Shown here: in pieces, positions 15,401-60,270 of the stretch
Numbering within the stretch: the stretch's first letter is position 1
How the letters are laid out: each line of letters opens with the position of its first letter
Origin: Perna viridis
Taxonomy: Eukaryota
NCBI GenBank assembly: GCA_037379345.1
Contig: CM074517.1
Coordinates: 43,070,500 to 43,134,499 of the forward strand
DNA: 64,000 bases
Direction of reading: 5' to 3'
Notes under the pieces: model-generated
What the model saw: only the letters and a program-made list of their open reading frames with translations
Told to the model about the DNA's origin: nothing
The model's database searches: none
Program-made: the position numbers and the translations under genes

Positions 15401-15604
15401 TTCAAAGAGTAATCAAGGAAACCAAGGTTATAGCGGTAATCAAAAGAATATAATCCAGGGACAAAGACCAGGCATGGAAAATAGACATACACAACAAAGA
15501 ACATAAAGTAACTAAAATCATACATACAAAGTAACAAAAGTAAATGAGCAACTCGGACTCCACTAAAAACTGGGAGCATGGACCAGGTGCACCGGTAGGG
15601 TAAG
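15401..15604 (-). mobile_element. ~200-bp 3'-terminal fragment of the same Penelope-like family
   Basis: Reverse complement reads cttaccctaccggtgcacctggtccatgctcccagtttttagtggagtccgagttgctc...ttgattactctttgaa, matching 60086-60270. Confidence 0.85.
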
Positions 15605-19876: not shown

Positions 19877-20085
19877 GGAGTTGGATTAGGGTAGGGGTCA
19901 TAACTCTTGAAATTAGTGATATGTTTGCATCATATTCAATTTCACCAAAGCCAATCAAGCTTTCATTTGAAACAATGAAATCAGTCTATGTTACTTTGAT
20001 GCTTACATGAGATTGATGTAAAATAGTTAATAAAAACGTTCCAATGATTTGTAAGAGTTATGTCCCTTACCCTAGGTCTACCTCC
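19877..20085. mobile_element. MITE with ~30-bp TIRs and TTAA target duplication (Kolobok-like), copy 1
   Basis: ttaa|ggagttggattagggtaggggtcataactctt ... aagagttatgtcccttaccctaggtctacctcc|ttaa. Homologous, in opposite orientation, to 52955-53166. Confidence 0.85.
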
Positions 20086-20559
20086 TTAAAAGTGCCTCAA
20101 TATTAAAAGCTAATTTCGTTTGAGAACGTCTTAAAAAAATTATTCTTCCAATGCTACATCACTATAAAGAATTATTCCATTATTGCATGCAAGCAGAATG
20201 AATATTTAAAAACCAGATGAAAAGAAAATAAACAAATTATTCTATAATGTTATCATTAAATATAAACATAATCATCGTGAAAAAAATGTTGCCTTCTCGC
20301 AATTCTTGAGAGCCTATAGCTTACATGACCTTAAAAATCGTGAATAATTTTATTGACAAGTGTTGAAATAAATTCTGAAGATAGTTTTAATTATTTCCGT
20401 TTTCTCCGACCATTTGTAACATTCGATAACATAGTAATATCATGGTATAAATTAGATTTGATATTGTTTGTTGAATTGTATTATTTTATTGGTAATTCTA
20501 TTATTAAAACCATCGACTTCTAACCCATAACTAGCCAATTTACAGTTATTTTCACGCGA

Positions 20560-20830: not shown

Positions 20831-21245
20831 GCTCCAGTGAACTAACGTTTTTACCAAATACCCGCTAAGTTTCATATTGACACCCGCTTTTTGGTCTTTA
20901 ATGTTAACTGTCATAAGACGACGCATCAAAATTATCATCTGACTTTTTATTGAAAGCAATCGTCTTTATACTTGCATTGAACCTTTTTTTTTAATTTCTG
21001 GAGGAACCAAATTTAAAAATCTGGACATTAACTAATTGTTAACCATGATGCGAGATCATTCATAAGACTAATTATTTCGTCTTTATCCCACGGGAATAAG
21101 CACTAGTACATTTGGATCTACAAACGACCACGAAAGGACAGCTTTTTCTACACATACAAACATCAAATTTGTATTCTATCTCGATGTGTGAAAGTTAATT
21201 CAACGGTAAAATAATAAAGACTGGTGTTCATAGGACGGACATAAA

Positions 21246-21702
21246 ATGTCACGCAGTGCTAGCCCTCGCTCCCTGGAGGAGGAAGAAGAAGACGCGATAA
21301 ACGTTGACAAATGTGATTCGGATGATGATGAGCCGAAAACAAATAGTGAAGTTCTAAACTCTAGTGCAAAAACTGAGTCAATGAGTGTTCCATCTTCAAT
21401 TTCATCATCTAAAAGTGGTATCCCTGAACCAAGTTTAGGTGGACCACCAAGACGGTCTTTTTTTATTACAGACATTTTATCAGATGCCAACAAAAGCTCT
21501 GGGAGTTTATCAGCATTTAAACCATTACGGGTGCCAACAAAATACTTTTCATCGCAGACATTATCACCAACGGACGACCCATTTCGGCGGGGGCTACAGT
21601 TAGGACAGTATAAAACACACCCTCCAAATGGTCGTGACTTGGGGAAATGTTCTGAAAGTTTAAAGTCAGATTCTGAGGACGACGACGAAGACGACGACGA
21701 AG
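21246..21702 (+). CDS. BARHL: BarH-like homeobox gene, coding exon 1 (acidic/Ser-rich N-terminus with eh1/FIL motif FFITDIL at 21459-21479)
   Basis: ATG in AAAATG context; open frame MSRSASPRSLEEEEED...RRSFFITDILSD...DDDEDDDE; donor GAAG|gtaaat at 21702/21703 in phase 1, which joins in frame to exon 2 (G+AT=Asp). Confidence 0.9.
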
Positions 21703-24256
21703 GTAAATTAAGATAAAAAAAAAATGATATTTAGTCAAATGAAGTGTACAAATGAATGCGTCTAATATTGTTTAAAAACTGCACAAAATAAAGCCCTACT
21801 TTTAAAAGTTTGACAGTAAGCCGGGCATTAGATATTAAACCAAAAAAATGATATTTCTTAACAAGACAAGCAGTAAAAATACCTAAAAAAGGATGCAAAT
21901 TTGTATCAAAAGAAGGCGCTCGTTTTGACCATAATCAATAATCAACAATTGATTGAAAGCAAAATAAACATAATCAATCTAGAAATATTTTATTCACAAT
22001 TATTTTAAATACGAATAGAGAAATTTTCTTAGTTTTATTTTTATTTGTACGCAATTTTTGATAAATATTTTAGAAAATCAGAATTTCCGATAACAGATGA
22101 AAATTTGGACATTAATTATTAAGAATATATATGTCTTATTAGAAATAAAATTCAGAGGCAAATCTCACATTGGAAATTCATGATATTTAAATAAAAAATC
22201 ATATTTCAACGGTGAAGAATGATGCCATTTTGTTCCTGAATTTATTTATACACCTGTATTATCATACCATTATATCTATGAAGGAATAAATGAGTTTTTA
22301 TCATAATTCAATTATACATTTTAGTATTTATCTCCAGTTGTAAAGTGTTTGGACTCACACATACGAGAGAGTCGCAGACTTAAAAAAACAAATACATTAA
22401 CAAAATTGATTTTTTATACATAATAATCGCCTTTGAGTGTTAATTTCTCTATAAGTATAATATATAACGGGTTATTTCTTCTTATTTTGTAAGTGTTATT
22501 ATAAAAACATGGTTAAATCGCCTTTTAAGATATCGATATCGAAATGGATAACCTTGAATTTAAATTTCTCTTTCAAAATTGAGGGATACAGATTTCGTAT
22601 AATTGATATCTTCACTGTAAAAGGCCTGCAGTGGCTATACATGTCGAAAACCCTTTTCATATGGGTTCGTTTAAAGTCACAACGAGCCCAAACTGTGTCT
22701 GTGATCAAATTACGTTGTGAAAATTTATTCTGATAAAAGTAAAAAAATCCTTGGTTATTTATTGCCGAAGCTTTTAGATATCAGGGTATTTTACTTAAAT
22801 GTGCAGTAATTTTTTTGTGCTAAGTTCGGCTACACCAAGAAAATTATACACCCTTTGACACGTTTTTAACTTGCTTTGTAAACTGTATGCTTGCTGATTA
22901 AGTTTTTTTTTAACTTTATATAGAATACTGAGAACTTCATATAACTGAGGGAGTATTAACATCTATCTTCTTTATGTGTATTTTTGGAGAAATAATCATT
23001 AGGTGAAAAGACAATACACGAATTATACTTTTTTTGTTTACAATTAACATTTTTCATGCATTTATTGACTTTATTATGATATTTATTTGAGAGTAGGAAA
23101 ACGAAAATTGATAAACCGTGCGAAAGCGAAAATTGATAAAGAGTACAAAAACAAAAATTAAACACAATTTTAGACAATTAAAAAAGAAACAATTTGTAGC
23201 ATCTACTATTTAATTACATAAACAAGACAAGGGAAATATATTACAATCAGTTTGTTTAATCATGATTATAAAATCACCTAAAATGCTTACTGATACATAT
23301 AGTGGAAATAAAGTTAAAATTTCCATCAAAATTTGAGATAGTATATATTACCAATGCACTTTCTGTAGGTGTTGGGACATAGTTTTCTATATCCTGGTAC
23401 AGCAATATCTGACGCCCTGAATATAGCAATCGAACCCCCCCCCCCCCAAAAAAAAATACAATACCACAACCAGTTTGTGACATTGTATTTCTCGGAAAGT
23501 TAACAGTTTTTAAAACAATTCTTAGGTCTTATTGCCAAATCTTTTAGGTAATTTCCGTTTGTATATGTTTAACTAAATGAAGAAGTCTGGTGCACGATGC
23601 ACCAGACGTATTGTTAGGCTTACAAGTACATGTACTCCATCTCTACACGAAACAGCTGATGTCCAAATACTATAGCAATTGCGTGGGGCTACGTGTCTTT
23701 TTATCTAAAGTCTAAAAAGAATACAAATGCAATACTGATGTAGATTTAGTCACACTTTTTGTTTTTATTTGGTTTTGTCAAAGCTAAAATTGCAAAAAGA
23801 TGTGATACTTTTTTAACCTTAAAACTATATACTGGAATAATTGACGTTTTAAAAAGAAGTTTTGATCAGGAAACTATTTTAAACACTTTACTTAGTGGAA
23901 GTCAAGAGTGAACGACCCACGCCCCCGTGTAACATGTGACCATACCTTAAACCATAGCCTTTTAATTTTCTATTTTGCTTTTCTAATAAGTACCACAATA
24001 TGGCTCTTTTTTTATTGAGAAAAATCATTTGTAATTTGATTTGCCTTTATTAGTTTTTATCACTTTGAGGTAAAAAATGTCAGTTGACGGGTTCACGTGG
24101 TACAAAATAAATGATATCTTAACAACATATACAGTAGATGTTTATTTTTATTGAGAAAAGATCTGTCGAAGTTTTAGCTTGATGTGTCAAATTGCAGTTA
24201 AAACAAAGGGGATTATTGAAAAACTTGTTTCACACAGGACATCATGTTTTCTTGTT

Positions 24257-24757
24257 TGTTTGTTTGTTTGTTTGTTGGGGTTTAACGTCCGAGCAGCAAT
24301 ATTTCAGCTATATTCAGACGATGGACATGAAACTGATGATGAAATGAAAAAAGGATGGGACACCAGGACAATGGGGTCGACAAATTTTGATTGCCACCGG
24401 AAATAGGGAGAGGAAGGTAGGGTCGGGCAATTTGGCCTCCTGTGGCGGAGCCCTATGGTTCCTACTCCGGAAGAATACCATAGTAGGGTTCTTTAACGTG
24501 AGAGGAACGTGGCATCTTTCCCAATACGGTGCACCACTATGGCTTGCGGTCAGGTTTTCCGTATTATAGCCTGACAACCCCAGAATGTAACACGCCAGAG
24601 GTAACCCATTCCACCACCTAGGGCACACATCCCAGTTGCTATGTGGGCAGAGCGCCCTAGCCCCCGGCTAGGGTTCTGTGCACTATTTAGTCGCCTTTTA
24701 CGACAAGATTAGCGCTGCTGCAGGCCTATCCTTTTAACACCCGGACCTGCACGGGGC
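24257..24757 (-). mobile_element. SINE-like retroposon family A, copy 3 (in intron 1 of the BarH-like gene, antisense)
   Basis: Full-length copy with a (tttg)n tail on the + strand and a 12-bp TSD tgttttcttgtt at 24245-24256 and 24758-24769. Confidence 0.93.
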
Positions 24758-50297: not shown

Positions 50298-52954
50298 AAT
50301 ATAAAGGAAATTTGTCTGTGTAAAAATTTATGGAACAGAAACCTGTTCAATCATCTTTCATCCTTCCTGAACAAATGGTCACCATTTGGTCAATAGAGGT
50401 TTTTTTGTCTTAAGTTATTGAAAAATATAAATATATCAATAGCGAATACAAAATTAATTAACAACAAATCAATGATTATAATATCTGTATAAGTCACATT
50501 TAACCATGATTACCCAATACAAAAAAAACTTTATTGTCGGACACTCCATGTCGGAACAAGAACAAACTTATCTGTAAAATCTTCATTTCTTTTTGGACTG
50601 TATTTTAGCTAAGTACGTGTTGCTCCTTCTAGTTAGTAAAAGCTAACCACACAAACACCACGAAATAAATCCAACAAGACATAGCACACCTAAAAACAGA
50701 AATTTTTATTAGTTTCATCAGAACGAAATTAATTCTGTTTTGCTCAAAAACAAAGCCTTCTTAGTGCTTTTACAAGAAAAGTAATCAGATTCGAATTTCC
50801 TACCTGCTTAAATATTCAAGAAAACAAATAAAAGACGAAAAATATTAATTTATCCCAGCTTATCAACAAATGATATTCACCATGTGCGCTGTTATAGTCT
50901 TAAATCAAACCTTGAAATTGCAATAAATACAAAATAAGATACTTATTGAAGGCAAAATTCATGAATTATGTATTTGTAAAACAAGAAACAAATAAAAGCA
51001 AATTAATTCACTAGGATAATCCTAATAAGGTTATAAAGGGCCGTTGTACTTATGTAATTGGTTTGTTCTTTTCAAATTATTTTGTCTTTATGCATATCTC
51101 GTTTTCTCCTTCAAAAAACCATGGTACTCATTTTGAGTTGTCATGAAAGTGATAAAATAAAATCCGCTTAAACTAAACTTAGTATTGTTTTTTTATTTCA
51201 ATTTTATTTTAGTTAAAACAGGTTATAGTTGACATAGTAAAAAAAATGTGTACACGAGTCAGAAGCTCATTTCTTGTTGTTTATGAAATGAACAAAGTTG
51301 TAATGAAACGTGTTTGTTTTTTTTTTCTTTTACGTCTGATACATTATCAAAATTTTGTTCAGTAAACTATCTATGAGAAAATTTCACTTATAATTAAAAC
51401 AAAGTATGCATGCCCTTTATAACTCTTTCTGTAATTTAATTAAAGCAACGATTTTTCTACATAATGTTTTTTGTCGTTATTCCTTTTGTTTTTGGCCCTA
51501 GATTGGTATGATGAGCAATGCGAACTTACAAAGCTTGAATATGGATGACAATATGAAGATAGTACTACCTCAGCCTCTGATCAACCCATAGGAAGCATCG
51601 ATTCCGTTTTTATCGCATCTTGAATAAGAAAAGCACCAGCCGCCGTCATTGATTAGACGGTAAAGCCATGTACATACCATCCAATATCTAATTAATACCT
51701 ATGGCAGTGTTCTTAAAAGAAAAAGATTATAAAAAGATTGTTTCAGGTGAAAAAAGCGTATGACACCTTCCTGATAAGACTTAATACGATTGCGATTCAA
51801 CCATAAGTAGATCTCTTCCTTTTTAGATGAGATAAATCGCGAGCTATTCACGCCCGGAATGACAATTGGCTATCATCAATATCTTTGAAGAACACTTATT
51901 GGAAATATACCGGTAATGGAGTCTTCAACTGCTTCCATTTAACGTCGTTAAGTCTTTTAAATGGGTTCTTAACCAGGTATTAATCGATTTAACTTTCGTT
52001 TACAGAGATTACCGGTGTTTCCAACATCCTTCTCGGCTCGATACACCGGAAACGCTCTTGTGACATGAAGATAAGAAAAGTGCCAATCGACCAGAGCTCA
52101 GAAAGTTAAGCCGATCGTAATATGCATTGATGACTATTAATTATGATTGGTTTATGTGTATCCTTTGACTGTCTGAAGACATCTTTGCGATTTCCGGTAT
52201 TAAAACATTGTCTTTTATGTATGAATCAGTTCATGCAATTGAAAACCTTAATGCATTCTTATAATTGTATATCGACTCCAAGTACACGGGACATAATCTT
52301 CGTGGTCTCTATTCATGCAAAAACAATAAATTAATACCATATAGTAACGGTTTAATTTGATTGAATTTAATTAAAGCCATTCCAGGAGATATTAAAATGC
52401 TATTAGCTTCCAATCGACCTGTCATCTTTCCGTTTTATTTAAATTGAAACATCTTAAGACCGATACAGAAAATTAAGCTGAATGCTAAGTACCCGGATAC
52501 GTTCGACTTATTAGTCGTTTAATTCCGACGAGCTTCGCGCGTACCGGAAAGGTAATAAAGACCACAATAAATACGCTTGCTGATGAAAGAATTGTGTAAA
52601 CTCACTGTCTTCAGTATGCTATTCGAGAATATTTCATTTTAGGTCCAGAACACCAGAAAGTGCTTTTGTGTGCCTTTTTTCTATGCAGTTGAAATTATTG
52701 TATTTATAATACCAGAAACTTTTAAGGCAATTATTTTTATATCAGTTGCAATGTTTTATAGTTACTTAAAATAAACAATTTCCGGGGAAAAAACTTCATA
52801 TCATCTGATAACATTAATTAAAAAAATGACATCAAGATATGATTTTGTCTTTCATACTGACCAATCTGATAAACAGTATGTTGCAATAAATAGTTTTTCA
52901 GTGATATGTTGTCTATGTTAATATTTGACATCTCCATTGGTACGGTAGGCTTAA

Positions 52955-53166
52955 GGAGGTAGACCTAGGGTAAAGGACACAACTCTCGTAAGTCATTGGA
53001 ACGTATGTATTCAGCATTTTATAGCAATCTCATGTAAGCATCAAATCAACTTGGACTGATTTCATTTGATATCAAATGAAAACTTGATATGTTTTAGTGA
53101 AATTGAATATTATACAAACATATCACTGATTTCAAGAGTTATGTCCTTTACCTTAGGTCTACCTCC
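52955..53166. mobile_element. MITE with ~30-bp TIRs and TTAA target duplication (Kolobok-like), copy 2
   Basis: ttaa|ggaggtagacctagggtaaaggacacaactctc ... aagagttatgtcctttaccttaggtctacctcc|ttaa. GG..CC termini with TTAA fit Kolobok better than piggyBac (CCY termini). Confidence 0.88.
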
Positions 53167-53669
53167 TTAACTGGTCTTCATTTATGTAAATGGTAGTTTT
53201 TAAAGGAAGACTTGATTTAAACCAAAAGTGTCAATACATTCTCAATCGTTATTTTTTTACTATACCACTATATGAAACAACCTAACTGATGTGATGTACC
53301 AATTAAGTATATTTTACATGTAAACGAAATCGAGACCAATATGCCATAAAATGTATACATCTACACGAGATGATTATACATAAAGAATAAATTTTGGGAT
53401 AGATACCTCAATTACATACTGGTTTGAAGATCTTCGAGATATCTATTTATTAAAAAAAAAAAAAACAATAAAGGAATTTTTATAACCTTCTCTTTTTCAA
53501 AATTTTCAGAATTCAATTTACGGAAAATAATGTTTTAAGTTATGAATACACATTTTTTAATTGACAGTCTAAACAGTATTTTTTTATTTTATTATCTTCG
53601 AGATGAACCTTGTACAAACAGGTATTTGAAGTATTATGACAACCAATCAATTAGATAGTTTTTGTTGCA

Positions 53670-59499: not shown

Positions 59500-60270
59500 C
59501 TGGAAATTTTCGATCGACAACAAATGTTAACTAACCGTCGACATTCCAATGGGAACAAATTGTGCTACTCTACTCCTGACTTATTCCTTCACTGTTATGA
59601 CGCTGACGTTATAGCTTATCTTATCCAATGGAAGGAATTCGTTTTGCCGGATCTTTTTATCTCAGTTACAGCAACATATATGATGAATTTTCGTTAAATA
59701 ATCAAAGTTTCGGGAATTTTATTCATCGCACATCTACCCTTAAGAACTTGAAATATAGGATATAACAGACACATCCCTTCAGCACCTGCATATGGAGTTT
59801 TCATATAAGAACTCATACGATATGCCAGAGCTTGCCATAACTACGCAGACTTTTTGTACCGCGCTAGACTTCTTACAATTAGACTTCTGTATCAGGGTTA
59901 TGTTGCTATTAGTTTGAAGTCATCACTACAGAAGTGTTATGGTCGTCATCATAAACTATAGTGTATCGATGGTGTATCCATCTGCACCATGAGAACCGAT
60001 TCGTTCAACGTGTCATAGTTTTCTTTTCCTCTTTCGTCTACCCCGACTTTTGACTCGGCGGGTGTTTCTAGATAAGCAGAGGACGCTTACCATACCGGTG
60101 CACTGGGTCCATGCTCCCAGTTTATAGTGGATTCCAAGTTGCTCATTTACGTTTGTTGATTTGTACGTATTATTTTGGTTTATTAATGTTTTTTTGACGT
60201 GTGTGTCTGTTTCCCTGTCCGGTTTTTGTTTTGTCCTTGCTATAACCTTGATTCCCTTGATTACTATTTG
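59500..60270 (+). mobile_element. Penelope-like retroelement fragment (RT core motifs, C-terminus, 3' UTR), decayed with an internal deletion
   Basis: gacattccaatgggaacaaattgtgct = (G)IPMGTNCA RT motif. A frameshifted YxDD-like segment and IYPKELEI-like residues follow, then IPSAPAYGVFI...RYARAC...DFLYRARLLTIRLLYQGY. Stop TAG at 60016-60018. The 3' UTR is shared with the other copies. Confidence 0.82.

Follow-up and report, generated by a model that had tools for sequence, protein, structure and literature searches.

A stretch of 64,000 nucleotides of the Perna viridis genome (contig CM074517.1), hereafter the window, holds two pieces of about 200 nt that seem to begin at one and the same nucleotide, inside a domain predicted to be structured as RNA. 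Does this coincidence point to a place where the RNA is processed or where the reverse transcriptase (RT) stops, does it mark the boundary of a discrete mobile unit, or can it arise among truncated copies of an abundant element? A preliminary description of the window had proposed the first two answers.

Two short pieces of a Naiad family

Judging from their sequence, the two pieces are the 3' ends of a Naiad (Penelope-like) family. Long copies carry an open reading frame that stops shortly before the 3' UTR and ends in a presumed C-terminal RT with a YIDD-type motif; a Pfam search of the long-copy frames gave no RT match, and the motifs are taken to be those of an RT. One locus (L163) holds both a CxC motif (PDCSCK) and DKA instead of DKG (VPADKA), and in another (L199) a GIY-YIG region lies N-terminal to the RT, in a frame upstream of the RT frames (Pfam PF01541, E 7.7e-4, 20.2 bits, below the curated cut-off of 22.6). 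N-terminal GIY-YIG, CxC, DKA and a C-terminal RT are the diagnostics given in section 6 of Craig et al. 2021 (PMC8557442), and we therefore assigned the family to the Naiad clade. As far as the consulted sections of that paper go, the likeness extends to the lack of a canonical hammerhead, to heavy 5' truncation, to partial tandems and to copies in the tens of thousands. No hammerhead core was found by Rfam or in L032, in which just the 3'-most 890 nt of the element are present.

Positions are counted along a real long copy (L050), with +1 being the C of CTTACCC (15604 in the window, minus strand) and 0 and negative numbers lying upstream. The 723-Mb genome contains 12,232 exact matches to the 22-mer at +1. 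A 3' 20-mer with one fixed flank letter gave 3,379 matches, or about 21,000 copies in all by our own scaling, and 34 copies met incidentally in 480 kb scale to about 50,000, a figure that clustering may inflate; we put the family at roughly 20,000-50,000 copies in this genome. Truncation at the 5' end is frequent, and partial tandems occur: each DNA run has 9-18 contigs with a head-to-tail joint from 15604 to 15404. Three further loci (L164, L226, L244) belong to another Naiad-like family, which is divergent and has its own type of 3' UTR. Four copies of the first family lie within the window, and these and the associated features are as follows.

2898..3411, plus strand: longer, older Naiad copy with an RT C-terminal remnant; +1 at 3222
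15401..15403, minus strand: 'gaa' after the element end, host flank
15404..15604, minus strand: short Naiad copy 1, consisting of the last 201 nt of the 3' UTR and 5'-truncated at +1
15544..15604, minus strand: 3' half (+1..+61) of the structured domain in copy 1, with the 3' strands of P2, the pseudoknot and P1, plus hairpin P3
50107..50297, minus strand: short Naiad copy 2, whose 5' junction is either +1 plus one additional A (50297) or +4 (50293)
59771..60270, plus strand: longer, older Naiad copy in which a remnant of the RT C-terminal coding sequence is left and the structured domain is degraded; +1 at 60086

Copy 1 starts cleanly at +1 and is 99.5% identical to L032, which runs 690 nt further upstream. 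Copy 2 has an internal deletion of 10 nt and reads CTTAACCC where the family has CTTACCC, and its start is either +1 with an inserted A or +4. The alignment called +4, in which case the preceding flank would end in TTCTTA, and the CTT in copy 2 may stem from a duplication of the target and not from the element. The shared start nucleotide is thus secure for copy 1 and ambiguous for copy 2, and +1 itself does lie, as first described, within the 3' strand of the predicted AAGC/GCTT hairpin. A common end that included 'gaa' did not survive: the 3' end of the family is fixed as GATTACTC plus up to a few T, the element ends ...GATTACTC(TTT) at 15404 and 50107, and TTTGAA follows in only 4/275 copies, so 'gaa' is flank and not element.

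Because the copies lie on the same strand of the same window, they might be one local duplication. However, the best local scores between their 300-nt flanks are only 18 and 19, the copies are 87.9% alike over 223 nt with 9 mismatches and 3 gaps between them, and each is closer to copies elsewhere. The unrelated flanks argue that the copies did not arise together, and we regard a single local duplication as refuted; that the two are independent had been correctly seen. Copy 1 is also present in DNA runs X3, X6 and X7 and copy 2 in X2, X4 and X7, and no empty-site allele was seen among the matches listed (X3, X6 and X7 for copy 1; X2, X4, X7 and X11 for copy 2).

The absence of a target site duplication (TSD) was not established, as TCTT stands at both junctions of both copies and is indistinguishable from microhomology. 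Across the family, short junction repeats are in excess (at least 6 nt in 32/253 copies versus 11 in shuffled pairings), and a position-by-position TSD matrix gave no fixed stagger. Naiads are expected to have a (TA)n target bias and a tail of 30-40 bp. The 3' flanks of the copies present a TTT-C-A-N-A signature, a possible difference from the Naiads in the consulted parts of PMC8557442, and by inspection a (TA)n target preference is not obvious in them. The last 38 nt of the element (15402-15439 in the window; L035) are tandemly repeated in DNA contigs and in 458 RNA reads, and the joint of this terminal repeat is visible in both DNA and RNA.

Distribution of 5' ends

The 29 other loci that most resemble copy 1 all begin elsewhere than at +1, running on for 3 to more than 1,500 nt beyond it. 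Starts range from -839 to +178 in a mixed set of 287 distinct copies. A blind sample of 201 copies, chosen without regard to the 5' end (83 via the 3' end, 118 incidental), had no start at +1/+2 and 4 at 0..+4, with a median length of 204 nt, and 106/201 reach +3 or further upstream. Among copies with the exact 22-mer, 0/85 start at +1. On a larger scale, 222 of the 12,232 22-mer matches had both upstream letters changed, and 16 of 30 inspected were truly truncated, so that about 1.2% of the copies reaching +1 would start there, compared with a local mean near 0.5% per nt; our overall estimate of this share is ~0.7-1.2%, and about half of all copies read past +1. Related families in other organisms (metagenome records) have scattered starts too, 2 of the 81 matches listed being at +1. 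The preliminary description had named uniformly scattered 5' ends as evidence against its proposal: the ends are scattered and no start is fixed, though a mild concentration in the domain remains.

It had also argued that random truncation should not give the same junction twice. When four copies are drawn from the observed distribution, however, a pair matches exactly in 1.2% of draws; allowing a difference of 1 nt raises this to 2.9%, and one of 3 nt to 6.7%. Scaled to the genome, these rates correspond to about 140, 330 and 760 such 64-kb windows respectively.

A ~200-bp non-autonomous unit (SINE-like, or a solo pLTR master) mobilised by the Naiad RT would fit the median copy length, and there is a copy, beginning at +2, whose flanks are shared across four contigs (L278:1434-1973, L456:1432-1971, C9:33435489, C11:27591451). 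This stub, however, is a passenger riding in a larger repeat, as L278 and L456 have at least 540 nt in common around it, at 92.8%. A tree built from 53 short, 35 middle-length and 45 long copies is star-like and of low resolution. On it the short label requires 36 changes, and none of 200 bootstrap trees sets the short copies apart from the rest by a single branch; they cluster slightly, with 22/500 shuffles giving a value as low. The distance among short copies (0.091) exceeds that between short and long ones (0.080), and the nearest relative of copy 1 is a long copy at 0.5%. A nearest-neighbour tally (44/53 short copies nearest a short one) was set aside because ties in the star tree went to the first-listed group. 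The short copies are therefore not monophyletic, and with neither a fixed 5' boundary nor a clade we regard the discrete unit as largely refuted and a master of this kind as very improbable.

Could the domain instead be a self-cleaving RNA of an unrecognised type that cuts at +1/+2, the copies starting there being run-off products of cleaved RNA? The conserved, covarying and pseudoknotted fold described below, with its unpaired CUUACCCU common to the families, would suit such a role, and Naiads are without the hammerhead found in other Penelope-like elements (PLEs), according to the consulted parts of PMC8557442. The footprint of a ribozyme here might also be weak, since the Poseidon element has a working hammerhead that needs protein in order to cut and gives rise to no RNA ends at its site in RNA-seq (PMC11167929, in the parts consulted). 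Nevertheless, the 5' ends form no spike at +1: 41 of the 45 positions in -22..+22 carry ends in a targeted sample (n=154, see below), and about half of all copies continue through the putative cut. Rfam gave no match to the domain (-39..+61). In RNA run X21 (12,900 reads), 2,115 reads continue past +1 into element sequence and no pile-up of read beginnings or ends was found, which is a weak test in a fragmented library. A defined processing or self-cleavage site is thus not supported, and we consider self-cleavage very unlikely.

The fixed 3' end, the scattered 5' ends, the median length of 204 nt and a rate of ends in the domain raised 2-2.6x support the reading that we prefer, with a probability of roughly 0.8: each piece is a separate insertion of an abundant Naiad, truncated at its 5' end, and the near-identity of the two starts is likely to be coincidental, both falling in the middle of a continuous length distribution that RNA structure mildly concentrates there.

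A structured 3' UTR domain and a soft excess of ends

The predicted fold covers -39..+61 (MFE z -3.5): a stem of 13 bp closes it, a second stem carries the AAGC/GCTT hairpin at its apex, and there is a third hairpin. A pseudoknot joins -5..-1 to +22..+27. This architecture is kept in related families (metagenome records; at least 81 matches at no fewer than 80 loci). Among the divergent Naiad 3' UTRs of this genome, none with the same fold was found at the loci listed, and a second search gave 10 weak matches without loci. We aligned 26 rows, 3 from this genome and 23 picked by eye and enriched for variants. In this alignment 90.3% of cells are paired, 21/38 pairs change on both sides and 5/5 pseudoknot pairs do so, in rows that are related, under a selection favouring variants and with anchor columns invariant by construction. 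The Penelope-like origin and the pseudoknotted domain of the preliminary description are accordingly confirmed, by the GIY-YIG, CxC and DKA motifs and by the covariation of the pseudoknot. In copy 1 the domain is without its 5' partner strands and is therefore predicted not to fold. Mappings to HDV-, twister- and telomerase-RNA-like folds were rejected because the helix order does not fit.

We found no description of a conserved 3' UTR domain or of Naiad truncation hotspots in the literature searched, with subscription journals, Repbase and supplements outside its scope; the consulted parts of PMC5737381, PMC10085705 and PMC4792442 have nothing on either. The family also differs here from the account in PMC8557442, which in the parts consulted, supplements aside, describes no conserved pseudoknotted 3' UTR domain (its sole 'pseudoknot' relates to a frameshift) and no uneven truncation profile.

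In the blind sample 5' ends occur at a rate of 0.60% per nt in -39..+61, 0.24% downstream and 0.33% upstream. Inside the domain 63 ends fall in 10,423 nt at risk, compared with 33 in 13,963 downstream (RR 2.56, P 5e-6), and the comparison with upstream gives RR 1.84 (P 0.001). The 3'-anchored stratum alone gave RR 2.2 (P 0.007), and simulation found no calling artefact as the source of the step. Ends are also fairly frequent at -150..-81 (0.48% per nt), a stretch that does not belong to the domain. The domain thus measurably shifts where copies end, and this helps to explain why stubs of ~200 bp are the typical copy in this genome.

Four pattern searches for copies truncated between -22 and +22 gave 983 matches, of which 180 were analysed. 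After removal of 2 duplicates, 24 of the 178 distinct rows were dropped, mostly as internal deletions or duplications, leaving 154 true truncations; three of the dropped rows, L290, L375 and L429, may nevertheless be genuinely truncated, at +1, -2 and 0 respectively. Against a null that combined real copies with random flanks, +1 had 10 ends and +2 had 15, versus 5.3 and 5.4 expected (jointly 25/154 versus 10.7, P 1.4e-4). A whole-genome census of +1/+2 patterns gave 95 matches, 13 of which were dropped by eye (about 8 internal rearrangements and 5 duplicated loci). The remaining 82 truncation events, classified by eye, compare with 63 expected (1.3x, P about 0.01), and 23 were judged clear at +1 and 34 at +2. 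We estimate that +1 by itself holds roughly the share expected under the null and that the excess is mostly at +2 after T-rich flanks (18/34 by eye). The bump at +1/+2 is therefore real but soft, 1.3-2.3x over the null.

A specific weak pause or stop at the apical hairpin and pseudoknot, at about -7..+3, could add a true local peak to the broad zone, with the two copies as its products. The targeted sample has 36 ends at 0..+3 versus 17 expected and 30 at -7..-1 versus 21.6, the blind rate over -7..+3 is 0.91-0.97% per nt versus about 0.5 beside it, and the peak falls on the 5' strand of the pseudoknot and the adjoining hairpin strand. On the other hand, the genome-wide excess is only 1.3x and owes little to +1, the blind-sample peak has P of only 0.07-0.08 against its neighbours, and such a pause would cover about 2% of copies. 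We regard it as a serious possibility, at somewhat less than even odds. The earlier idea of an RT stop site is therefore tenable only in a weak form, in which drop-off is raised broadly across the domain with a soft local rise at -7..+3, and not as a sharp site.

Other causes of the bump were considered. General microhomology to TT or CTT is a weak explanation that fails for +2: outside the zone.TT starts are enriched only 1.4x (34 versus 24.1, P 0.02) and CTT starts 1.7x (7 versus 4.2, P 0.13), while TTA is depleted (1 versus 5.3). Weighting the null for microhomology made the fit no better. Only 2/100 long copies have a C-to-T change at +1 that could account for starts at +2.

Under the preferred reading of independent truncated copies, an endonuclease would nick a T-rich target (the copies are followed by TTT-C-A-N-A) and the nicked strand would prime on the CUCUUU at the RNA 3' end. 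The RT would copy from 3' to 5', presumably dropping off more often when unwinding the three-way junction and pseudoknot. The cDNA end would then be joined to the upstream flank, often via 1-4 nt of microhomology or a short duplication, and this end-joining would blur the 5' junction. If the structure blocked or biased RNA decay, the resulting 5' ends would be distributed just as after RT drop-off. R2 templates, in the consulted parts of PMC11331408, offer a precedent, with truncations gathering inside a structured, HDV-like 5' module, and truncated R2 insertions there have 5' junctions made by end-joining with little or no microhomology. The R2 ribozyme, however, sets the true 5' end, whereas the structure here lies in the 3' UTR and sets no boundary.

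Perhaps bivalve-type Naiads have in their 3' UTR a conserved RNA domain of a type not yet described, with a three-way junction, a pseudoknot of 5 bp and two covarying palindromes, that replaces the missing hammerhead, as a dimerisation or RT-binding module or as a slow, protein-assisted self-cleaving RNA, and the +1/+2 excess is its faint footprint. We hold this to be unlikely, if less so than self-cleavage at +1/+2 as such. Two truncated copies among tens of thousands carry little weight by themselves, and the conserved pseudoknotted domain deserves more attention: the consulted parts of PMC8557442 leave unsettled by what means Naiads transpose when they have no hammerhead, and the domain offers a directly testable, covariation-supported RNA of 100 nt.

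The two palindromes, at -24..-15 and +9..+14 (L032:1456-1568), covary between families. Their adjacent central bases are complementary in 24/24 rows, with three pair types, though unable to pair within one strand, which would fit RNA dimerisation or a site acting at the DNA level. The conserved unpaired CTTACCCT (+1..+8) differs in one letter from the C-strand of a TTAGGG-type telomere. One metagenome copy (L498) starts at +1 straight after two such C-strand repeats, which may be chance.

Related elements and other features of the window

Non-LTR retrozymes and MRC1-type non-autonomous PLEs, in the consulted parts of 10.64898/2026.07.22.740005 and PMC8557442, resemble our pieces in being short, non-coding and PLE-derived, a few hundred nt long. 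They are, however, defined units with fixed ends and tandem organisation, the retrozymes with a hammerhead, and the copies here have none of these features. The Poseidon PAc element (PMC11167929, likewise in part) shares cleavage of an AT-rich target and a defined RT start that yields a fixed 3' end, and differs in its C-terminal endonuclease and its hammerhead; the parts consulted do not deal with where 5' ends fall.

Both short copies lie outside the exons of a homeobox gene on the plus strand, at 21234-21716, 27097-27453 and 30027-30335 (PF00046, E 1e-21), a gene that we take to be BarH-like. Another repeat family of ~400-500 nt has four copies, at 8053-8436, 10181-10703, 24257-24758 and 32899-33416, and a MITE-like element of ~220 nt with 41-nt inverted ends has two, at 19887-20089 and 52951-53170. 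Local tandem repeats are found at 1848-1955 (54 nt), 11713-11962 (about 43 nt) and 34370-34600 (159 nt).
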